A stretch of DNA of 64,000 nucleotides. Source: Escherichia coli. GTDB lineage: Bacteria > Pseudomonadota > Gammaproteobacteria > Enterobacterales > Enterobacteriaceae. The DNA lies in the NCBI RefSeq assembly GCF_003334405.1, contig NZ_QOWM01000008.1; one strand, 5' to 3'. The notes beneath the pieces are model-generated. The model ran no database searches, was not told the DNA's origin, and saw nothing but the letters and a program-made list of their open reading frames with translations. A program made the translations under genes and the position numbers. Below are positions 4,806-57,338 of this stretch, piece by piece. Within the stretch, counting starts at the first letter, position 1. Every line of letters starts with the position of its first letter.

Positions 4806-6485
4806 ATGAAACAGAAAATTACGGATTACCTGGACGAAATCTACGGTGGAACATTTACCGCAACTCATTTACAGAAACTTGTAACGCGTCTTGAGAGTGC
4901 GAAACGATTAATTACACAGCGACGTAAAAAACACTGGGATGAAAGTGATGTCGTGTTAATTACCTATGCCGATCAATTTCACAGCAATGATTTAAAACCA
5001 TTACCCACATTTAATCAGTTTTACCATCAATGGCTGCAAAGCATTTTTTCACATGTTCATTTGTTGCCGTTTTATCCATGGTCATCTGATGATGGCTTTT
5101 CGGTAATTGATTATCATCAGGTCGCCAGTGAAGCGGGGGAGTGGCAGGATATTCAGCAACTCGGTGAATGCAGTCATTTAATGTTTGATTTTGTCTGCAA
5201 CCATATGTCGGCAAAAAGTGAATGGTTTAAAAACTATTTACAACAGCATCCAGGTTTTGAAGATTTTTTTATTGCCGTTGACCCGCAAACCGATCTCAGC
5301 GCCGTCACTCGCCCGCGTGCGTTACCGTTATTAACGCCATTCCAGATGCGCGATCATTCAACGCGCCATTTATGGACCACCTTTAGTGACGATCAAATTG
5401 ACCTGAATTACCGTAGCCCTGAAGTGTTGCTGGCGATGGTGGATGTTTTACTCTGTTACCTTGCGAAAGGTGCTGAGTATGTCCGCCTGGATGCCGTTGG
5501 CTTTATGTGGAAAGAGCCGGGAACAAGCTGCATCCATCTGGAAAAAACACATCTGATTATCAAACTGTTACGGTCGATTATTGATAACGTTGCGCCAGGT
5601 ACAGTGATCATTACCGAGACCAATGTTCCGCATAAAGACAACATTGCTTACTTTGGCGCAGGCGATGACGAAGCACATATGGTGTACCAGTTCTCGCTGC
5701 CGCCACTGGTGCTGCATGCGGTGCAAAAACAGAACGTTGAGGCGCTTTGTGCGTGGGCGCAAAACCTGACACTACCTTCCAGCAACACCACCTGGTTTAA
5801 CTTCCTCGCCTCTCACGATGGCATCGGGCTAAACCCGCTACGGGGCTTGTTGCCTGAAAGCGAAATATTAGAGCTGGTCGAGGCGTTACAGCAGGAAGGT
5901 GCATTAGTAAACTGGAAAAATAATCCCGACGGTACACGCAGTCCGTATGAAATAAATGTGACCTATATGGATGCGTTAAGCCGCCGTGAGAGTAGCGATG
6001 AAGAACGTTGCGCCAGGTTTATCCTTGCCCATGCGATTTTGTTAAGTTTCCCCGGTGTGCCAGCGATATATATTCAAAGTATTCTTGGCTCGCGTAATGA
6101 TTACGCAGGTGTCGAAAAAATCGGATATAACCGTGCGATTAACCGTAAAAAATATCACAGTAAAGAGATAACCCGAGAACTGAACGATGAAGCTACATTA
6201 AGGCATGCGGTATATCATGAGTTGTCGCGTTTAATTACACTTCGTCGCAGCCATAACGAGTTTCATCCGGATAATAATTTTACCATTGATACGATTAATT
6301 CATCCGTAATGCGTATTCAAAGAAGTAACGCTGATGGTAATTGTCTGACTGGATTGTTTAATGTCAGTAAAAATATTCAGCATGTAAATATTACTAATCT
6401 GCATGGTCGGGATCTGATTAGTGAAGTTGATATATTGGGTAATGAAATAACGCTGCGCCCCTGGCAGGTTATGTGGATTAAATAA
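4806..6485 (+). CDS. ycjM: GH13 sucrose-phosphorylase-like enzyme (glucosylglycerate phosphorylase)
   Basis: ORF 4779-6485; start taken at MKQKITDYLDEIYGG (559 aa); first gene of ycj sugar cluster. Confidence 0.85.
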   Translation: MKQKITDYLDEIYGGTFTATHLQKLVTRLESAKRLITQRRKKHWDESDVVLITYADQFHSNDLKPLPTFNQFYHQWLQSIFSHVHLLPFYPWSSDDGFSVIDYHQVASEAGEWQDIQQLGECSHLMFDFVCNHMSAKSEWFKNYLQQHPGFEDFFIAVDPQTDLSAVTRPRALPLLTPFQMRDHSTRHLWTTFSDDQIDLNYRSPEVLLAMVDVLLCYLAKGAEYVRLDAVGFMWKEPGTSCIHLEKTHLIIKLLRSIIDNVAPGTVIITETNVPHKDNIAYFGAGDDEAHMVYQFSLPPLVLHAVQKQNVEALCAWAQNLTLPSSNTTWFNFLASHDGIGLNPLRGLLPESEILELVEALQQEGALVNWKNNPDGTRSPYEINVTYMDALSRRESSDEERCARFILAHAILLSFPGVPAIYIQSILGSRNDYAGVEKIGYNRAINRKKYHSKEITRELNDEATLRHAVYHELSRLITLRRSHNEFHPDNNFTIDTINSSVMRIQRSNADGNCLTGLFNVSKNIQHVNITNLHGRDLISEVDILGNEITLRPWQVMWIK

Positions 6486-6498
6486 AAAGGAACATCTC

Positions 6499-7791
6499 AT
6501 GATTAAATCAAAAATCGTGCTGTTATCAGCACTGGTTTCATGCGCCCTGATTTCAGGCTGTAAAGAAGAAAATAAAACGAATGTATCCATCGAATTTATG
6601 CATTCTTCGGTGGAGCAGGAGCGCCAGGCCGTTATCAGTAAATTGATTGCCCGTTTTGAAAAAGAAAACCCTGGCATCACCGTTAAGCAAGTGCCCGTGG
6701 AAGAAGATGCCTATAACACTAAAGTCATTACTCTTTCACGTAGCGGTTCGCTGCCGGAAGTGATCGAAACCAGCCATGACTACGCCAAAGTGATGGACAA
6801 AGAGCAGCTTATCGATCGCAAAGCGGTTGCCACAGTCATCAGCAACGTTGGTGAAGGCGCGTTTTACGATGGCGTACTGCGTATTGTGCGTACCGAAGAT
6901 GGTAGCGCATGGACCGGTGTTCCTGTCAGCGCCTGGATTGGCGGTATCTGGTATCGCAAAGATGTGCTGGCAAAAGCGGGGCTTGAGGAGCCGAAAAACT
7001 GGCAACAGCTGCTGGACGTTGCACAGAAACTGAATGACCCGGCGAATAAAAAATACGGCATTGCGCTGCCTACAGCAGAAAGCGTGTTGACGGAACAATC
7101 CTTCTCCCAGTTTGCGTTATCCAACCAGGCTAACGTCTTTAACGCCGAAGGCAAAATCACCCTTGATACACCAGAGATGATGCAGGCACTGACCTATTAC
7201 CGCGACCTTGCTGCCAACACTATGCCGGGTTCTAACGACATCATGGAAGTGAAAGACGCCTTTATGAACGGCACCGCGCCGATGGCGATTTACTCCACCT
7301 ATATCCTTCCGGCTGTGATTAAAGAAGGCGACCCGAAAAACGTCGGTTTCGTGGTGCCAACCGAGAAAAACTCTGCGGTCTACGGCATGTTGACCTCGCT
7401 GACCATTACCGCCGGGCAAAAGACCGAAGAGACGGAAGCAGCAGAAAAATTTGTCACCTTTATGGAGCAGGCAGACAACATTGCCGACTGGGTGATGATG
7501 TCGCCAGGTGCTGCGCTGCCGGTGAATAAAGCGGTGGTGACTACCGCCACCTGGAAAGACAACGACGTTATTAAGGCGCTGGGTGAACTACCGAATCAGC
7601 TAATCGGTGAACTGCCAAATATTCAGGTTTTTGGCGCAGTAGGGGATAAAAACTTTACCCGCATGGGTGATGTGACGGGTTCTGGCGTGGTGAGTTCAAT
7701 GGTGCATAACGTCACCGTGGGTAAAGCCGATCTCTCTACTACGCTGCAAGCGAGCCAGAAAAAACTGGATGAACTGATCGAACAGCACTAA
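6499..7791 (+). CDS. ycjN: ABC transporter periplasmic sugar-binding protein
   Basis: 430-aa ORF with lipoprotein-type signal (LISGC). Confidence 0.85.
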   Translation: MIKSKIVLLSALVSCALISGCKEENKTNVSIEFMHSSVEQERQAVISKLIARFEKENPGITVKQVPVEEDAYNTKVITLSRSGSLPEVIETSHDYAKVMDKEQLIDRKAVATVISNVGEGAFYDGVLRIVRTEDGSAWTGVPVSAWIGGIWYRKDVLAKAGLEEPKNWQQLLDVAQKLNDPANKKYGIALPTAESVLTEQSFSQFALSNQANVFNAEGKITLDTPEMMQALTYYRDLAANTMPGSNDIMEVKDAFMNGTAPMAIYSTYILPAVIKEGDPKNVGFVVPTEKNSAVYGMLTSLTITAGQKTEETEAAEKFVTFMEQADNIADWVMMSPGAALPVNKAVVTTATWKDNDVIKALGELPNQLIGELPNIQVFGAVGDKNFTRMGDVTGSGVVSSMVHNVTVGKADLSTTLQASQKKLDELIEQH

Positions 7792-7811: not shown

Positions 7812-8693
7812 ATGAACAGGCTTTTTTCAGGTCGTTCCGATATGCCCTTTGCGCTGCTGCTTCTCGCGCCCAGCTTATTACTGCTGGGCGGTCTGGTGGC
7901 GTGGCCGATGGTGTCGAATATCGAAATCAGTTTTTTACGTCTGCCGCTCAATCCCAACATCGAGTCAACGTTTGTTGGGGTGAGCAACTATGTGCGTATC
8001 CTCTCCGATCCCGGCTTCTGGCATTCGCTGTGGATGACGGTCTGGTATACCGCGCTGGTGGTGGCGGGCAGCACCGTGCTCGGGCTGGCGGTGGCGATGT
8101 TTTTCAACCGCGAGTTCCGCCTGCGCAAAACCGCGCGTTCGCTGGTGATCCTCTCCTACGTAACGCCGTCCATTTCGCTGGTGTTCGCCTGGAAATACAT
8201 GTTCAACAACGGCTACGGCATTGTTAACTACCTCGGCGTCGATCTTCTGCATCTCTATGAGCAGGCACCGCTGTGGTTCGATAATCCGGGCAGTAGCTTT
8301 GTGCTGGTGGTGCTGTTCGCCATCTGGCGCTACTTCCCGTATGCCTTTATCTCGTTTCTGGCGATTTTGCAGACCATCGACAAATCGCTGTACGAAGCGG
8401 CAGAGATGGATGGCGCTAATGCCTGGCAACGGTTTCGTATCGTCACGCTGCCCGCAATTATGCCGGTCCTGGCGACGGTGGTGACACTGCGCACCATCTG
8501 GATGTTCTACATGTTCGCGGATGTTTATTTGCTGACGACCAAGGTCGATATTCTCGGTGTATATCTCTACAAAACCGCCTTTGCCTTTAATGATTTAGGA
8601 AAAGCGGCGGCGATCTCGGTGGTGCTCTTCATCATTATTTTCGCTGTCATTCTGCTGACCAGGAAACGGGTGAACCTCAATGGCAACAAATAA
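7812..8693 (+). CDS. ycjO: ABC transporter permease
   Basis: 293-aa polytopic membrane ORF. Confidence 0.85.
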   Translation: MNRLFSGRSDMPFALLLLAPSLLLLGGLVAWPMVSNIEISFLRLPLNPNIESTFVGVSNYVRILSDPGFWHSLWMTVWYTALVVAGSTVLGLAVAMFFNREFRLRKTARSLVILSYVTPSISLVFAWKYMFNNGYGIVNYLGVDLLHLYEQAPLWFDNPGSSFVLVVLFAIWRYFPYAFISFLAILQTIDKSLYEAAEMDGANAWQRFRIVTLPAIMPVLATVVTLRTIWMFYMFADVYLLTTKVDILGVYLYKTAFAFNDLGKAAAISVVLFIIIFAVILLTRKRVNLNGNK

Positions 8694-9522
8694 ACGCACA
8701 CTCAGTCGCATCGGTTTTTACTGCGAGCTGGCGCTGTTTCTCATCATCACGCTGTTTCCATTTTTTGTGATGCTGATGACCTCGTTCAAGGGCGCGAAAG
8801 AGGCGATCTCACTGCATCCTACGCTGCTGCCGCAGCAGTGGACGCTGGAGCATTACGTCGACATTTTTAACCCGATGATTTTCCCGTTTGTCGACTACTT
8901 CCGTAACAGTCTGGTGGTGTCTGTGGTTTCATCCGTGGTGGCGGTATTCCTCGGCATTCTTGGGGCTTACGCGCTTTCCCGCCTGCGCTTTAAAGGTCGG
9001 ATGACCATCAACGCCAGCTTTTACACGGTGTATATGTTCTCTGGCATTTTGCTGGTGGTGCCGCTTTTCAAAATCATCACCGCGCTTGGCATTTACGACA
9101 CTGAGATGGCGCTGATCATCACCATGGTGACGCAAACTCTGCCCACCGCCGTGTTTATGCTGAAAAGCTACTTCGACACCATCCCCGATGAGATCGAAGA
9201 AGCGGCGATGATGGATGGCCTCAACCGTCTGCAAATTATCTTCCGCATCACCGTGCCGTTGGCGATGTCCGGGCTGATATCCGTGTTCGTCTACTGCTTT
9301 ATGGTGGCGTGGAACGACTATCTGTTTGCGTCGATTTTCCTCTCCAGCGCCAGCAATTTCACCTTACCGGTGGGCCTGAACGCGCTGTTCAGTACGCCAG
9401 ATTACATCTGGGGACGGATGATGGCGGCCTCACTGGTGACCGCATTGCCGGTGGTGATTATGTATGCGCTTTCGGAACGTTTTATTAAGAGTGGTTTGAC
9501 CGCCGGTGGCGTGAAGGGCTAA
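8680..9522 (+). CDS. ycjP: ABC transporter permease
   Basis: 280-aa polytopic membrane ORF overlapping ycjO end. Confidence 0.85.
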   Translation: MATNKRTLSRIGFYCELALFLIITLFPFFVMLMTSFKGAKEAISLHPTLLPQQWTLEHYVDIFNPMIFPFVDYFRNSLVVSVVSSVVAVFLGILGAYALSRLRFKGRMTINASFYTVYMFSGILLVVPLFKIITALGIYDTEMALIITMVTQTLPTAVFMLKSYFDTIPDEIEEAAMMDGLNRLQIIFRITVPLAMSGLISVFVYCFMVAWNDYLFASIFLSSASNFTLPVGLNALFSTPDYIWGRMMAASLVTALPVVIMYALSERFIKSGLTAGGVKG

Positions 9523-9552
9523 AGCGGCCAGTTTCTTTACAAGGAGTTTTAA

Positions 9553-10605
9553 ATGAAAAAGTTAGTAGCCACAGCACCGCGTGTTGCTGCGCTGGTTGAG
9601 TATGAAGATCGGGCGATTTTAGCTAATGAAGTGAAGATCCGCGTGCGTTTCGGCGCACCGAAACACGGAACGGAAGTGGTCGACTTCCGCGCCGCCAGCC
9701 CGTTTATTGATGAAGACTTTAACGGCGAATGGCAGATGTTCACTCCGCGTCCGGCAGATGCGCCGCGCGGCATTGAGTTTGGCAAATTCCAGCTTGGCAA
9801 CATGGTGGTTGGCGACATTATCGAGTGCGGCAGCGACGTTACCGACTACGCGGTGGGCGACAGCGTATGCGGCTACGGCCCGCTCTCCGAGACGGTCATC
9901 ATTAACGCAGTGAATAACTACAAGCTGCGCAAAATGCCGCAAGGCAGCTCCTGGAAAAACGCCGTCTGCTACGACCCGGCGCAGTTTGCCATGAGCGGCG
10001 TGCGCGATGCCAACGTGCGCGTAGGGGATTTTGTGGTGGTGGTAGGGCTTGGCGCAATCGGTCAAATTGCCATCCAACTGGCTAAACGCGCTGGCGCTTC
10101 TGTGGTGATTGGCGTCGATCCTATCGCCCATCGCTGTGATATTGCCCGTCGCCACGGCGCGGATTTCTGCCTTAACCCCATCGGCACTGATGTAGGTAAA
10201 GAGATCAAAACGCTGACCGGCAAGCAGGGTGCCGATGTGATTATCGAAACCAGCGGCTACGCCGACGCGCTGCAATCGGCGCTCCGCGGTCTGGCTTATG
10301 GCGGCACCATCTCCTATGTCGCGTTTGCCAAGCCGTTTGCCGAAGGTTTTAACCTCGGACGCGAAGCGCATTTCAATAACGCCAAAATTGTCTTCTCTCG
10401 CGCGTGCAGCGAACCGAACCCGGATTATCCGCGCTGGAGCCGCAAGCGTATTGAAGAAACCTGTTGGGAACTGCTGATGAACGGTTATCTCAATTGCGAA
10501 GATTTAATCGACCCGGTGGTGACCTTTGCCAATAGCCCGGAAAGCTATATGCAGTATGTCGACCAGCATCCGGAACAGAGCATCAAAATGGGCGTTACGT
10601 TTTAA
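9553..10605 (+). CDS. ycjQ: zinc-type alcohol/sugar dehydrogenase
   Basis: 350-aa ORF with GLGAIGQ Rossmann motif. Confidence 0.85.
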   Translation: MKKLVATAPRVAALVEYEDRAILANEVKIRVRFGAPKHGTEVVDFRAASPFIDEDFNGEWQMFTPRPADAPRGIEFGKFQLGNMVVGDIIECGSDVTDYAVGDSVCGYGPLSETVIINAVNNYKLRKMPQGSSWKNAVCYDPAQFAMSGVRDANVRVGDFVVVVGLGAIGQIAIQLAKRAGASVVIGVDPIAHRCDIARRHGADFCLNPIGTDVGKEIKTLTGKQGADVIIETSGYADALQSALRGLAYGGTISYVAFAKPFAEGFNLGREAHFNNAKIVFSRACSEPNPDYPRWSRKRIEETCWELLMNGYLNCEDLIDPVVTFANSPESYMQYVDQHPEQSIKMGVTF

Positions 10606-10623
10606 TTCAAAGGAATGAAAAAA

Positions 10624-11412
10624 ATGAAAATCGGCACACAGAATCAGGCGTTCTTTCCGGAAAACATTCTGGAGAAATTTCGTTATATCAAAGAGATGGG
10701 CTTCGATGGTTTTGAGATTGACGGCAAACTGCTGGTTAACAACATCGAAGAAGTCAAAGCGGCGATCAAAGAAACCGGTTTACCGGTGACCACCGCCTGC
10801 GGTGGCTATGACGGATGGATTGGCGACTTTATCGAAGAGCGTCGTCTTAATGGCTTAAAGCAGATCGAGCGCATTCTCGAAGCGCTGGCAGAAGTGGGCG
10901 GTAAAGGCATCGTCGTTCCGGCTGCGTGGGGCATGTTTACCTTCCGCTTACCGCCGATGACCTCGCCGCGTAGCCTGGACGGCGACCGCAAAATGGTGAG
11001 TGATTCCCTGCGCGTACTGGAACAGGTCGCCGCGCGTACCGGAACCGTGGTGTATCTCGAACCGTTAAACCGCTATCAGGATCATATGATCAACACCCTC
11101 GCCGATGCCCGCCGTTACATCGTCGAAAACGATCTTAAACATGTACAGATTATCGGCGATTTCTATCACATGAATATCGAAGAAGATAACCTGGCGCAGG
11201 CGCTGCATGACAACCGCGACCTGCTCGGTCATGTGCATATTGCGGATAACCATCGCTACCAGCCGGGCAGCGGCACCCTGGATTTCCACGCGCTGTTTGA
11301 ACAGCTGCGCGCGGATAACTATCAGGGCTATGTAGTGTACGAAGGGCGTATCCGGGCGGAAGATCCTGCCCAGGCGTACCGTGATTCGTTGGCCTGGTTG
11401 CGTACCTGCTAA
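10624..11412 (+). CDS. ycjR: sugar phosphate isomerase/epimerase (TIM-barrel xylose-isomerase-like)
   Basis: ORF 10615-11412; start taken at MKIGTQNQ (262 aa). Confidence 0.8.
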   Translation: MKIGTQNQAFFPENILEKFRYIKEMGFDGFEIDGKLLVNNIEEVKAAIKETGLPVTTACGGYDGWIGDFIEERRLNGLKQIERILEALAEVGGKGIVVPAAWGMFTFRLPPMTSPRSLDGDRKMVSDSLRVLEQVAARTGTVVYLEPLNRYQDHMINTLADARRYIVENDLKHVQIIGDFYHMNIEEDNLAQALHDNRDLLGHVHIADNHRYQPGSGTLDFHALFEQLRADNYQGYVVYEGRIRAEDPAQAYRDSLAWLRTC

Positions 11413-46943: not shown

Positions 46944-47144
46944 TCACGACGACTGAAGTTTCTCGCAATTAAAATTTATCAGTTTTACTTTCTGCTCTCT
47001 GGAACCGCCTGCTTCTTTTTTACCTGAGAGCATTTTTTCGCATTCTGATTTGGTTAATTTTGTTTTTGAGTACCTTGTCCAGTTAGTAGGAGTGCCACCT
47101 TCCTTTTCAATAGTGGCGGTAATTTTATACATGAACACCTCCAT
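46944..47144 (-). CDS. ydaC: Rac prophage small protein YdaC-like
   Basis: ORF 46944-47204; start uncertain (M at codon 21 or 25). Confidence 0.5.
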   Translation of the reverse strand: MEVFMYKITATIEKEGGTPTNWTRYSKTKLTKSECEKMLSGKKEAGGSREQKVKLINFNCEKLQSS

Positions 47145-52802: not shown

Positions 52803-53291
52803 ATGTTGGATGTATTTACTCCATTGTTGAAACTTTTTGCTAACGAGCCACTCGAAAGACTTATGTATACGATTATCATTTTTGGTCTCACTCTCTGGCT
52901 GATACCGAAAGAGTTTACTGTCGCATTCAATGCTTATACTGAAATACCTTGGCTCTTTCAGATTATCGTTTTTGCCTTTTCTTTCGTGGTCGCCATTTCC
53001 TTCTCAAGATTGCGAGCACATATTCAAAAGCATTATTCATTACTACCAGAGCAACGAGTATTGCTTCGTTTATCTGAGAAAGAAATCGCTGTATTTAAAG
53101 ATTTCCTTAAAACAGGAAATCTTATTATCACTTCTCCTTGCCGTAACCCGGTTATGAAAAAATTAGAACGGAAGGGCATCATTCAACATCAGAGTGATAG
53201 CGCAAACTGTTCTTATTATCTCGTCACCGAAAAATACTCCCATTTTATGAAGTTATTCTGGAACAGCAGGAGTAGACGTTTTAATCGTTAG
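52803..53291 (+). CDS. sieB: superinfection exclusion protein B
   Basis: ORF 52680-53291; start taken at MLDVFTPLLKLF (162 aa); two hydrophobic helices. Confidence 0.8.
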   Translation: MLDVFTPLLKLFANEPLERLMYTIIIFGLTLWLIPKEFTVAFNAYTEIPWLFQIIVFAFSFVVAISFSRLRAHIQKHYSLLPEQRVLLRLSEKEIAVFKDFLKTGNLIITSPCRNPVMKKLERKGIIQHQSDSANCSYYLVTEKYSHFMKLFWNSRSRRFNR

Positions 53292-53443
53292 CTTACTGTG
53301 TGCTTCTCCAACCATCGGCGCGCACCAGTTTCGGTTTTAAATGTTTTGCTTTTGGTATACGTCATGGCAGTGAACGTTCCATCCTGGTTGGGGAACACGC
53401 CGCACACCAGGGATTCGTTGTTGCCGAGGTCGATTTTTTGCAT
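53288..53443 (-). CDS. ydaF: Rac prophage small protein (51 aa)
   Basis: My translation MQKIDLGNNESLVCGVFPNQDGTFTAMTYTKSKTF...; convergent with sieB (4-nt overlap). Confidence 0.55.
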   Translation of the reverse strand: MQKIDLGNNESLVCGVFPNQDGTFTAMTYTKSKTFKTETGARRWLEKHTVS

Positions 53444-53453
53444 TTTGCGAATC

Positions 53454-53588
53454 TCACATCTTGTTGCTACGTATAGCGACTTCTGCCTGCCAGAGATCCC
53501 AGTCGTTGCTGCGTAAAGCCTGCACAGCCTGGTTGTAAGTGATACCGCAACAATCCATCAAATACTGAACTACTTCGTAATGCACCAT
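53454..53588 (-). CDS. ydaG: Rac prophage small protein (44 aa)
   Basis: ORF 53454-53660; start taken at MVHYEVVQYLMDCCGITYNQ. Confidence 0.55.
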   Translation of the reverse strand: MVHYEVVQYLMDCCGITYNQAVQALRSNDWDLWQAEVAIRSNKM

Positions 53589-54059
53589 CTTATCTATCCC
53601 CTTAACGCCGGGTGTACAAATTTTGCGTTCAGCGGAAAACCTGGTACCGGGAAGAACCACTTAGCGGCAGCTATCGGGAATCGCCTGCTGAAAGACGGTC
53701 AGACAGTGATTGTGGTTACCGTGGCTGATGTTATGAGTGCCCTGCACGCCAGCTATGACGACGGGCAGTCAGGCGAAAAATTTTTGCGGGAACTGTGCGA
53801 AGTGGATCTGCTGGTTCTTGATGAAATTGGCATTCAGCGCGAGACGAAAAACGAGCAGGTGGTACTGCACCAGATTGTTGATCGCCGGACAGCGTCGATG
53901 CGCAGCGTGGGGATGCTGACAAACCTGAACTATGAGGCCATGAAAACATTGCTTGGCGAGCGGATTATGGATCGCATGACCATGAACGGCGGGCGATGGG
54001 TGAATTTCAACTGGGAGAGCTGGCGTCCGAATGTCGTCCAGCCAGGAATTGCGAAGTAA
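53580..54059 (+). pseudogene. ydaV: 5'-truncated DnaC-like helicase loader (YdaV-like)
   Basis: ORF matches DnaC only from the Walker A box onward (FSGKPGTGKNHLAAAIG ... DLLVLDEIG); about 90-100 N-terminal codons absent; upstream sequence is the ydaG start. Confidence 0.65.
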
Positions 54060-54081: not shown

Positions 54082-54843
54082 ATGGAGACTGTTTTTGACG
54101 TACTGAAAGCAATGGGAAAAGCCACATCCATAGAACTTGCTGCGCGACTTGATATCAGTCGTGAAGAAGTGCTGAACGAACTATGGGAACTGAAAAAGGC
54201 TGGTTTCGTTGATAAAAGCGCGTACACCTGGCGTGTGGCTGATAACAACGTTCAGCAGGAACAGCCAGCGCCGGCAGAACTGCCGGAAGAAACTACCACG
54301 GCAACAGTCGCGAAAATTTCAGAGAGCGATTTAACTGCGACGATTGAACAACGTGGACCACAAACGGCGGATGAGCTGGCTACATTGTTTGGTACCACAT
54401 CACGCAAAGTGGCTTCAACGCTGGCAATGGCAATCAGCAAAGGTCGTCTGCTTCGCGTAAATCAGGGCGGTAAATTTCGTTACTGCATACCGGGCGATAA
54501 TTTACCAGCAGAGCCGAAAGCAGCATCGGTAGCGGAAACTGCTGGTAAGGCCTTTCCTCAGCCCGCAGGTGTTGCGTTACCAGTACAGGAGGCTGCAACA
54601 CAGGAAGATATTAAAACAGAAACTGTGGCGGACATTGTGCAGTCGCTGCCATCGTTTACTGAAACGCGAGCGGATGACCTGGTTTTACCATCACTGCATA
54701 TGGCAAACCGCGAACTGCGTCGGGCGAAAAATCATGTCCAGAAGTGGGAGCGTGTCTGCGCCGCGCTGCGGGAGCTGAACAAGCACAGGGATATTGTACG
54801 ACAGATTACTGATTCTTCCCGCCATGTTGCATCGGAAAAGTGA
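54082..54843 (+). CDS. prophage protein, YdaW/DUF1627-like (winged-helix N-terminus)
   Basis: ORF 54031-54843; start taken at [16 protein letters not shown] after GAGAAA SD. Confidence 0.55.
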
Positions 54844-54858
54844 TTGCCGGAGGCACCT

Positions 54859-55281
54859 ATGGCAAAAGTATTTACACCAGAAGAGCGGGAAAAAATTAAA
54901 GGGCAGGTTGTTGAACTTGTACGTCTGAGCGGTCGCGAGACGTTACGGGCTCTGGAGGCTAAAACCGGTGCATCAAGGTATTACATAAGCACTCTCGCCA
55001 GAGAACTGGTCGCCAGTGGTGATGTTTACAATTCAGGCTACGGATTATTCCCGTCTGAGCAGGCGCGTAAAGACTGGCAAAACGCCCGCAAAAAACTATC
55101 AAGGGCAAAGGTGAAGAAACCGGTTGTGGTTGATCCTGACCTTATCTGGTCATTACCAGACGGAGAAATACGCCGTTACGACAGGCGTCTGAACATAATC
55201 TGTCGCGAGTGCCTGAAGAGAGAAGTTATGCAGCGTGTACTTGCGTTCTACCATGGAAATATTCAGGAGGTTGTGTGGTGA
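54859..55281 (+). CDS. hypothetical prophage protein (140 aa)
   Basis: ORF 54844-55281; ATG 6 nt after GGAGG; no recognised domain. Confidence 0.5.
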   Translation: MAKVFTPEEREKIKGQVVELVRLSGRETLRALEAKTGASRYYISTLARELVASGDVYNSGYGLFPSEQARKDWQNARKKLSRAKVKKPVVVDPDLIWSLPDGEIRRYDRRLNIICRECLKREVMQRVLAFYHGNIQEVVW

Positions 55282-55455
55282 ACAAGATTAACTATCCGTG
55301 GGTAGTCGCTGTCAATGCTTTACTTGCTGAAGTTCGGGCGGGCGCATTTAACGATCTTTGCGCGGAACAACTTCGTACGCATGAATAATTAAGTTAGCAC
55401 TGTAAATAAAATTTAATCCTTAGCCGGAGGTATTTCTGCACCCTCATAAAATCAG

Positions 55456-55487
55456 GAAACCGCCCGAAAGGGCGGTGGTTTCATTGT
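55456..55487. terminator. hairpin terminator at 3' end of the two-gene AT-rich operon
   Basis: accgccc-gaaa-gggcggt stem-loop directly after stop codon of the 184-aa gene. Confidence 0.6.
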
Positions 55488-56042
55488 TTAACTATCTAAT
55501 ATTGTGCTAAATCTTTTTATAACCATCAAGAATGTTACTACGGTAAAAAAGAAGGATGAGTATGCTAAATAACTGATTATGTAAGCAGGGGTTGCGAAAT
55601 ACCATTTTTTTAATTCACTTGGGGTTTCTGGGAGAAAATATATTGCAACCGAAAAAATAACTAACGCTACAGATGTTAATATAGCATAAGAAACATTGTG
55701 ACATAATTGCTCATATACGGTTTTATTATTATTTAAAATTATTAGATTTGAACGTGGTTTGTTGTTTTCCTCAATGTCTGAAATTTTAAATACAGTTTTT
55801 TGTTTTTGATCGTAGATCATAATAACCGCGCTCATTAACAGTGCGGTAGTAATTGCTCCAAAGTTAACAAAAACAGATGCGATAGAGGTTTTCATTATCC
55901 CATAGGTAAAACATATGATTAATGATAATGTAAGAGGAATAATGAAGTGTATTGCGATGTCTTCGAGTAAAATATTTCCGCGTTGATCCGACATTGTTGT
56001 GTAATGTTTTTTTATTACACTCATTACGTTAATCTTGTTCAT
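55488..56042 (-). CDS. four-helix integral membrane protein (184 aa), candidate RexB-like effector
   Basis: Four hydrophobic segments (about 22 residues each); ATG overlaps upstream stop (ATGA); SD GGGGGA; very low GC. Confidence 0.6.
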   Translation of the reverse strand: MNKINVMSVIKKHYTTMSDQRGNILLEDIAIHFIIPLTLSLIICFTYGIMKTSIASVFVNFGAITTALLMSAVIMIYDQKQKTVFKISDIEENNKPRSNLIILNNNKTVYEQLCHNVSYAILTSVALVIFSVAIYFLPETPSELKKWYFATPAYIISYLAYSSFFFTVVTFLMVIKRFSTILDS

Positions 56043-56971
56043 ATTTTTAATCCCCCATTACCACTATGTAACTCACTTAGTATATCATTCGCAATGATTT
56101 TAACAGTGTCATGAAGTGCTTTAAGATCGGGGATTCCTGTAGATGCGTTTATGTTTAAGTCGTTATCATCTAATTCGGCAGAAATTCCTTTTCTTAAGAT
56201 GGTGTCGTAATTAAAAATGACTGTTCTATTGCCTAATTGTAAACTAACTTTTATTGCGTCACACTTATCTTCAATTATTTCTATTATATTTCCTAGTTTT
56301 TTGTCTTTTAAGTCTTTAAAACTACCAAATACGCCTTGATTTGCTTTTATTACCAAATCGGTTTTGATGTTTGTTTTGTTATTTCCGAATGAATCCGTGA
56401 TGTCCTTTGGTGCTTTGTAACCTTGGGCTTTTATTTGTTTTAATTCTGAATCAAGGATGTGTTGGGGGATTTTTTTGTGGCAAAGAGGATTGATTCTCGC
56501 TTCAAGTTTATATTTTGTTTTCAAGTGGTCTAGTAATGCATCAGAGAGTGTGCTGCGAGCAGAAATATTGTCATTAGCGTGAAATGCTATAATCCCTTCT
56601 TCTAAATTGTCTGGCAAAAATATTAAAATGTAACGCTGTTTGAGAGTTACATCGTTGATAGTTGTTGTATAACGTATTTTAGTAAGTTTATCGTCTTTTA
56701 TTTCACTGCTCTCACCATATTTCCCAACCTTTACATATCCATATATTACTTGGTTTTGAGCATCAAAGGTGAGTGATGTGTGTTGTTCAAGAGAAACCTT
56801 TGTTTTCGAGAGACCAAATTCAATAGGTGTGTTTTTATAGCTATTAAAATACTCAACAAATAATTCATATGCTGTTTTTTTATCGCTTAAACCTAGGTTG
56901 TTTAGTCTTTTGCTGGTTCGGCTGCCCTTGTGGGTTAACACACGGAATGAATAGAAGTTAACGCTGTGCAT
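56039..56971 (-). CDS. soluble 310-aa protein of unknown function, candidate RexA-like sensor
   Basis: ORF with AAGGA SD; Lys/Asn-rich, low GC; N-terminus MHSVNFYSFRVLTHKGSRTSKRLNNL resembles lambda RexA N-terminus as I recall it (unverified). Confidence 0.55.
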   Translation of the reverse strand: MHSVNFYSFRVLTHKGSRTSKRLNNLGLSDKKTAYELFVEYFNSYKNTPIEFGLSKTKVSLEQHTSLTFDAQNQVIYGYVKVGKYGESSEIKDDKLTKIRYTTTINDVTLKQRYILIFLPDNLEEGIIAFHANDNISARSTLSDALLDHLKTKYKLEARINPLCHKKIPQHILDSELKQIKAQGYKAPKDITDSFGNNKTNIKTDLVIKANQGVFGSFKDLKDKKLGNIIEIIEDKCDAIKVSLQLGNRTVIFNYDTILRKGISAELDDNDLNINASTGIPDLKALHDTVKIIANDILSELHSGNGGLKI

Positions 56972-57338
56972 GAAAAGTCCTTTTGAACATATAGGAATAT
57001 ATTAGAGCATGAATGTGTGCAATGCATAAAAGAAAAAGCTACCGCAAGGCGACTCCACCCACAGATAGCTCTTAATTGATTGTTTGTAAAAAATAATACA
57101 TTAATTATCTTCTGTGTAAAGAGGGAAACAGCCTTAGGGTAAGGGACACGAGTTGGGGGGATTGGTGAAATTTGCGTTGAGGATAAAACGATTTGCGGGA
57201 AAAGGATAGTTAAGTAGAATTGCTGCGGGTGCTTGAGGCTGTCTGCCTCGGGCATGAACACCAAAGGCAGATAGAGAAAAGCCCCAGTTAACATTACGCG
57301 TCCGGCAAGACGCTTAACATTAATCTGAGGCCACATCT

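Follow-up and report, generated by a model that had tools for sequence, protein, structure and literature searches.

[quoted passage not shown] A K-12 deletion running from sieB to ydaU with kilR intact is viable, ydaS was never found without racR in 154 genomes, and it is already published that racR and ydaS are lost together across genomes (PMC5700373). Within the Rac switch, YdaS and YdaT are best understood as equivalents of Cro and CII (PMC5917428); the CP-933P homologue of YdaT is described, in work cited in PMC11014345, as non-toxic. When RacR is depleted, the expression of ydaG, ydaF, kilR, ydaE and racC rises 40-70-fold, xisR/intR are also upregulated, and the prophage excises or undergoes internal deletions (PMC11014345). 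All these toxicity and essentiality data concern the racR/ydaS type of K-12, and not the DicA-like module whose loss is reported here.

The locus that we analysed lies in a 64-kb stretch of E. coli DNA, hereafter called the window. With a probability of about 0.88, we consider that one 2,608-bp deletion between two copies of CCGGGTG, in a cryptic Rac-type prophage integrated at ttcA, removed the switch together with the replication-initiation module and left an inert remnant. The engineered K-12 deletions are viable and, like this one, take out the repressor along with the divergent cro/cII-like genes and the intergenic control sequences (PMC5700373). However, those are laboratory constructs of the racR/ydaS type, one of which spans sieB to ydaU with kilR intact (PMC5700373), whereas the deletion in the window is natural, has microhomology at its ends and affects a DicA-like type; moreover, it reaches ydaV and spares sieB, ydaF and ydaG.

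The Rac-type prophage beside ttcA

The prophage occupies 45.3-64 kb of the window, beside ttcA, and is visible from attL to trkG. Its minus strand carries intR, xisR, ralR, recT, recE, a racC-like gene, ydaE and kilR, in this order. We assign it to the Rac type from the ttcA site, the presence of intR/xisR, ralR/RalA, recT/recE, kilR, sieB, ydaF and ydaG in the K-12 order, and the trkG cargo. The window is collinear with the 64EVA prophage and with K-12 Rac. The latter is found at the same ttcA-side site with the same gene order, and is 99.9% identical from recE to ydaG and 98.2% identical over the 3' part of ydaV plus ydaW. It is likewise cryptic, its lysis region being followed at once by trkG; in the window, the lysis cassette also runs straight into trkG (from about 63025 onward), with no virion genes between them. 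Judging from this layout, the element was already cryptic before the deletion, and the question of its remaining ability to replicate therefore matters little.

The remnant keeps other genes of its own. Across the prophage, Rfam detected only RalA, sok and STnc100, all above the gathering score, and nothing at the junction. Since RalA was found, as was sok beside hok, two toxin-antitoxin pairs are still intact in the remnant. The recT-family ORF next to recE has 350 codons. Between the Ren-like gene and hok/sok lies a cassette of two genes coding for 310-aa and 184-aa products, the second of which looks membrane-embedded; both belong to PHROGs of unknown function only (phrog_15676 and phrog_15250), and no Pfam or PADLOC match was obtained for the cassette. 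Strain 7/2 carries a different pair in the same slot (a 167-aa hypothetical protein and a KilA-N protein), and this interval looks like a variable slot of the moron or defence type. The Rz-like lysis gene of 64EVA that aligns with 62423-62887 of the window is listed as a pseudogene interrupted by an internal stop. 64EVA also contains an IS421 insertion whose site is empty in the window; the alignment blocks overlap there by 12 bp, which is consistent with a target-site duplication. In this prophage, one structural change is thus private to 64EVA (the insertion) and one to the window clone (the deletion).

The deletion junction and the truncated ydaV gene

The breakpoint was mapped by ungapped alignments to K-12 MG1655 (NC_000913.3, Rac region) and to strain 7/2, and by megablast against 64EVA. 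Homology on the left is unbroken through 53614 and homology on the right begins at 53608, the seven shared bases being CCGGGTG. In the undeleted genomes (K-12, 7/2 and 64EVA), one copy of this heptamer precedes the ydaG start by about 20 nt and a second is found at ydaV codons 99-101. The comparisons with 64EVA and with K-12 give the same breakpoint, with blocks that overlap at 53608-53614. The first-pass annotation, made from the sequence of the window alone, had suggested mapping the breakpoint and looking for microhomology, and the alignments reveal a clean one of 7 bp. The locus thus has the marks of a deletion between short direct repeats: the repeat at both ends of the undeleted form, a single copy at the junction, and no foreign sequence there (IS end, scar or att-like site). 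This evidence is structural rather than statistical, since it consists of base-by-base alignment to undeleted relatives and of three independent assemblies with an identical junction.

In E. coli deletion spectra, such a signature at the kilobase scale is attributed to slippage or to microhomology-mediated joining. The classical lacI spectrum, which Albertini and colleagues reportedly described in 1982, is one of spontaneous short-homology deletions; as in the window, kilobase-scale stretches are lost between two short direct repeats and one copy is kept, with no notable difference between the two cases. We propose that the two CCGGGTG repeats recombined illegitimately, which would have produced one spontaneous deletion of 2,608 bp with one copy left behind. 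As for the recombination mechanism, we infer it from its product, and the sequence fits slipped-strand as well as microhomology/end joining.

Table 1. Features of the window and of the segment deleted from it. Positions refer to the window, or to the 64EVA locus where this is stated.
Feature	Position	Strand	Basis or remark
RalA (ralR antitoxin)	46948-47126		Rfam, above gathering score
recE, 1023 codons	48447-51518	-	866 codons in K-12 (2601-nt CDS)
sieB (superinfection exclusion B), intact; borders the junction region on the left	52803-53291	+	ORF; counterpart of annotated sieB in K-12, 7/2 and 64EVA; Pfam SieB
ydaF (DUF1391), intact	53288-53443	-	ORF; annotated ydaF in relatives; Pfam DUF1391
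ydaG, coding sequence intact, 44 aa	53454-53588	-	tblastn, 44/44 aa identical to K-12 YdaG
Extended ydaG frame, 68 codons, GTG start	53454-53660	-	equivalent of the longer 64EVA ydaG; enters antisense ydaV'
Chimeric 159-codon ORF, ydaV pseudogene	53580-54059	+	first 10 codons from ydaG antisense and leader, then YdaV residues 100-248
Remnant of native ydaG upstream region, 19 nt (26 nt with microhomology)	53589-53607	-	left-register alignment to K-12 and 7/2
Deletion junction, single retained copy of 7-bp CCGGGTG	53608-53614		alignments to undeleted relatives
DUF1627 gene, intact (full-length form of K-12 'ydaW')	54082-54843	+	253/253 identical to strain 7/2 protein; Pfam DUF1627
Stretch absent from K-12 Rac, 7,911 bp	54532-62442		K-12 locus 7201-7202; blocks overlap by 2 bp
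DUF977 / Ren-like exclusion gene, intact	54859-55281	+	95% identical to 7/2 DUF977 protein; phrog_142 'Ren-like exclusion protein', E = 1.5e-41
Cassette of 310-aa and 184-aa genes	55488-56971	-	PHROGs
sok	57227-57402		Rfam, above gathering score
hok ORF, 51 codons	57397-57552		adjoins sok
Empty site of the 64EVA IS421 insertion	57564-57575		alignment to 64EVA
STnc100	60191-60377		Rfam, above gathering score
Region aligning with the Rz-like gene of 64EVA	62423-62887		alignment to 64EVA
Match to residues 150-186 of K-12 'ydaW'	62442-62552		Rz region
Deleted segment, 2,608 bp	64EVA locus 8616-11223		equivalent interval in K-12 coordinates, 2,802 bp
Segment: most of the ydaG-repressor intergenic region	within 64EVA locus 8616-11223		64EVA and 7/2 annotations
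Segment: operator-like sites between repressor and ydaG	64EVA locus 8762, 8786		spacing 24 bp
Segment: DicA-like helix-turn-helix repressor, 139 aa	64EVA		NCBIfam
Segment: operator-like sites between repressor and cro-like genes	64EVA locus 9289, 9322, 9346		
Segment: Cro-like gene, 84 aa	64EVA		annotation
Segment: ydaT	64EVA		PHROGs 'CII-like transcriptional activator'
Segment: O-like replication initiator, 262 aa	64EVA		PHROGs replication initiation protein
Segment: ydaV codons 1-99	64EVA		alignment

The short upstream remnant of ydaG retains a Shine-Dalgarno-like AAGGGGA and, with its 19-26 nt, has room for a Shine-Dalgarno sequence, not for a promoter; the rest of the intergenic region, about 240-310 bp with the OL-like operators, is deleted. 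As the first reading had it, the ydaG start codon abuts the DnaC-like ORF: the two overlap by 9 nt on opposite strands, with the ATG of the ORF inside ydaG, and coordinates and content are as then described. In 64EVA, PGAP gives a longer version of ydaG, of 59 codons, that starts in the segment deleted from the window. Because the equivalent extended frame of the window enters antisense ydaV', automated annotation may call a spurious YdaG with an altered N-terminus.

The DnaC-like ORF is a chimera. Its residues 1-10 (MHHLIYPLNA) are unlike any YdaV sequence, and residues 11-159 correspond to residues 100-248 (of 248) of the full-length YdaV of 64EVA and K-12; tblastn gives 98.7% over YdaV residues 97-248, a range that takes in junction-derived codons. 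The Walker A motif GKPGTGKN is found at ORF residues 19-26, 8 residues past the breakpoint, which agrees with the earlier description of an ORF starting essentially at this motif, and the AAA+ core is kept with Walker A and the downstream motifs. The same description had the N-terminal third of DnaC/YdaV missing; the truncation is there, but its extent, 99 of the 248 residues (40%), is slightly above a third. We also looked further upstream for a start codon that could restore the complete DnaC-like gene; the frame is closed by a stop 21 codons before the ATG, and thus no overlooked start can give such a gene.

A protein was counted as a helicase loader when its whole-protein score exceeded the curated cut-off and its match covered the full 248-position profile (NF009043; NF005931 for DnaC). 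Against NCBIfam PRK12377 (NF009043), the window ORF scored 306.3 bits for a cut-off of 389, over profile positions 97-248 only, whereas the intact YdaV of 64EVA scored 507 bits over positions 1-248. With its score below the cut-off and its partial profile, the window ORF falls outside the DnaC/YdaV-type AAA+ helicase loaders. Intact YdaV (248 aa) can be aligned over its whole length with the DnaC of E. coli in 6QEL and 6QEM (6QEL: residues 2-241), and its residues 2-57 align with the isolated DnaC N-terminal chain of 6KZA. Lacking YdaV residues 1-99, the ORF has lost what is, by homology with DnaC, the DnaB-binding N-terminal region. No ribosome-binding site or Shine-Dalgarno motif is recognisable before its ATG. 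We therefore regard the 159-codon ORF, devoid of the N-terminal helicase-binding region, of a recognisable ribosome-binding site and of a predicted promoter, as a pseudogene, and the annotation of 53580-54059 should read pseudogene fragment, not ATP-binding protein.

The lost immunity and replication module

The closest complete genome is that of 64EVA (NZ_CP138399.1), from which the window differs by 8 substitutions and 1 gap in the 19 kb of prophage that flank the deletion. Its alignment with the window forms three collinear blocks, separated by the 2,608-bp segment and by the IS421 copy, both of which are present in 64EVA only. The deletion, its exact endpoints and its content are thus read directly from the comparison. 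A complete lambdoid immunity region (repressor, operators, cro and cII analogue) lies inside the deleted interval in 64EVA and is absent from the window. The undeleted relatives confirm what the first-pass annotation had proposed, that an immunity/replication block between ydaG and the DnaC-like gene is gone. It had named the missing genes as racR, ydaS, ydaT, ydaU and full-length ydaV. None of them was found in the 64-kb window, where tblastn with the repressor, Cro/YdaS, YdaT and O/YdaU proteins (K-12 and 7/2 versions) gave a best E value of 0.07; however, the block that was lost is not the racR/ydaS/ydaU set of K-12. The 64EVA repressor and Cro-like proteins share only HTH-level similarity with RacR and YdaS, and the O-like protein matches YdaU in its C-terminal half only (81%); YdaT and YdaV of 64EVA are 94% and 99.6% identical to the K-12 proteins. 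By these protein comparisons, the lost module is heteroimmune to the K-12 racR/ydaS type.

Clusters of a 15-bp near-palindrome, TGTAC-N5-GTWCA, lie on either side of the 64EVA repressor gene (Table 1). The 23-kb locus contains 10 strand-matches to this motif for 1.8 expected, an enrichment that is partly circular and indicative only, because the motif was derived from the counted sequence. All five operator-like sites fall within the deleted interval, and the prophage of the window shows no operator-like cluster, only chance-level matches, none of them in the early region. Promoter-like hexamers in both directions overlap the OR-like cluster of 64EVA. At the OL-like cluster, a search for a leftward PL with a strong sigma-70 consensus gave at best 8/12 matches. 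Such a layout is indicative of the OL/OR arrangement expected of a lambdoid switch, the promoter locations being predicted ones. Near the junction, no promoter-like site appeared on either strand in a scan that was overall at or below chance, and from the end of sieB to 55459 the plus strand has no predicted terminator.

According to our proposal, the deletion would have taken, to the left, the OL-like operator cluster with the leftward early promoter region and the DicA-like repressor gene, and, to the right, the OR-like cluster with its divergent promoters, the cro-like gene, ydaT, the O-like initiator gene and 99 codons of ydaV. The genes ydaG-ydaF-kilR-recET-xis-int on one side and the DUF1627/Ren-like genes on the other would have lost their early promoters. 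Since a shortage of RacR induces the leftward genes and excision, a stable repressor-less prophage must also have lost its leftward promoter. The first-pass annotation had foreseen a stable prophage without repressor; the repressor is indeed gone, but the operators and promoters on both sides of its gene were deleted as well, and the stability of the remnant would depend on the loss of the early promoters as much as on that of the toxic genes. The cell would tolerate the absence of the repressor because the promoters it controlled, the operators and the toxic regulators were deleted with it. The remnant should then no longer be derepressible, replicate from its own origin or kill its host through induction. 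The most likely state is thus an element with no induction or origin replication, no derepression of kilR/recET, and a promoterless ydaV'-DUF1627-Ren-like stretch. The DUF1627 gene is now cut off from any PR-like promoter, and the genes flanking the junction are presumably silent. Any trans-acting repressor encoded elsewhere in the genome, beyond the window, would have no operators left to bind.

Distribution of the allele and decay of Rac prophages

A look-up of the exact 159-aa product retrieved GCA_024592615.1 (contig JANJGO010000003.1, 162.7 kb) and the Logan assemblies ERR3469010 and ERR1948962, whose contigs are 100% identical to the window, junction included, over 12.5, 7.2 and 2.8 kb, respectively; 9 samples are reported for the junction-carrying contigs. 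The junction is therefore present in the Logan assemblies of at least two sequencing runs and in one NCBI draft assembly. Its identity in three independent assemblies excludes an assembly artefact and means that several isolates have inherited the allele. Among 5,426 complete E. coli genomes, none carries this junction, the sole short-gap match, PSS-07, being a different deletion, and 450 of them carry the intact segment in full. The exact 47-nt junction had no match in 100,044 species-representative genomes, a scan that says little because few E. coli are among them. The exact ORF is found on only 4-6 contigs, compared with hundreds for the common full-length alleles. To the left of the prophage, 15.3 kb of chromosome are 100% identical to 64EVA, PK5074 and L73, all three of which keep the 2,608-bp segment. 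Flanks of about 100% identity in strains that carry the segment place the deletion as a recent event within one clone. The deletion is thus real, recent and clone-limited; that it arose recently and was passed on to several isolates is read directly from these comparisons.

Other Rac copies have lost other parts. K-12 Rac keeps its immunity/replication block, whereas the window lost one of another immunity type; conversely, K-12 lacks 7,911 bp that are kept in the window, comprising the C-terminus of DUF1627, the Ren-like gene, the cassette, hok/sok, the DUF1367, YbcO-like, Q-like DUF1133 and TolA-like genes, the holin and the lysozyme. This K-12 deletion explains why K-12 'ydaW' is a chimera, with residues 1-151 from DUF1627 and residues 150-186 from the Rz region. 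In PSS-07 (NZ_AP027673.1; locus 5248-5727), an independent 1.9-kb deletion joins ydaS codon 22 to the middle of ydaV with a 6-bp overlap. On the right it ends 34 bp away from the breakpoint of the window, and PGAP flags the product as an ATP-binding protein without N-terminus. Unlike the window, PSS-07 has the immunity type of K-12, and it retains racR, the control region and ydaS up to codon 22; what it lost is ydaS'-ydaT-ydaU-'ydaV. The PSS-07 prophage also carries a recT'/'recE deletion. Taken together, the alignments of the window, K-12 and PSS-07 show what is the rule for Rac copies, namely decay by independent short-homology deletions in different lineages.

The same deletion could have been positively selected, as an escape from lethal derepression following a mutation, titration or an incoming regulator, and not have spread by neutral decay. 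We hold this to be possible but clearly less probable than decay. Lowering RacR in K-12 is lethal or induces filaments, and the survivors show Rac excision or 'larger deletions within the Rac locus' (PMC11014345); racR deletions were recovered only with ydaS or ydaS-ydaT (PMC5700373); and the PSS-07 deletion arose independently, with its neighbouring right end and with racR kept. Yet selection and drift are inseparable by sequence alone, the allele is rare by the counts given above, and the toxicity data come from K-12, not from this immunity type. A selective advantage of another kind seems improbable. The deletion placed sieB about 300 bp upstream of the ydaV'-DUF1627-Ren-like stretch and, as no plus-strand terminator precedes 55459, read-through from the lysogen-expressed sieB promoter could reach the Ren-like gene. 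It may in this way drive the Ren-like gene and DUF1627 constitutively, as a rewired superinfection-exclusion operon selected for phage defence; a related and equally doubtful idea is that ydaV may be a deletion hot spot, with two independent ends no more than 34 bp apart.

Even less probable is an expressed ORF with a function of its own, for example in interfering with helicase loading or with the replication of incoming phages. Its frame is open over 159 codons with Walker A and the AAA+ core intact, and sieB read-through could also transcribe it, but its ATG arose by chance from antisense ydaG, with neither an upstream Shine-Dalgarno motif nor a predicted promoter; the homologue of the DnaB-binding N-terminus is missing, the score is under the family cut-off, and an open frame is an ordinary leftover of an in-frame or near-terminal deletion. 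An assembly artefact, through a collapsed or mis-joined contig, has a negligible probability: it has in its favour only that no complete genome in the collection carries the junction, whereas three independently assembled data sets agree at 100% identity over 2.8-12.5 kb and the ends share just 7 bp, which is no repeat long enough for a collapse. Hardly more credible is an ancestral short form into which an immunity module was inserted in other strains, given that the ORF begins mid-gene with the full gene collinear with DnaC, that the breakpoint lies inside coding sequence, that the long form has the 7-bp repeat at both ends, as a deletion predicts, and that the closest relatives all carry it. 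The identical junction of the three assemblies and the truncated reading frame led us to reject these last two explanations.

We therefore retain the single spontaneous deletion in an already cryptic Rac prophage. The allele had not been listed before, but the process, ordinary prophage decay, is well known, and the consequences of the deletion were already anticipated by the published viable engineered deletions and by the co-loss of racR and ydaS. The element is best described as a Rac remnant without immunity and replication functions, a distinction that matters little beyond annotation. The 47-nt junction is a marker for tracking one E. coli clone. Finally, the locus is a natural counterpart of the engineered K-12 deletions, which show that a prophage can do without its repressor when the functions under its control have been lost.
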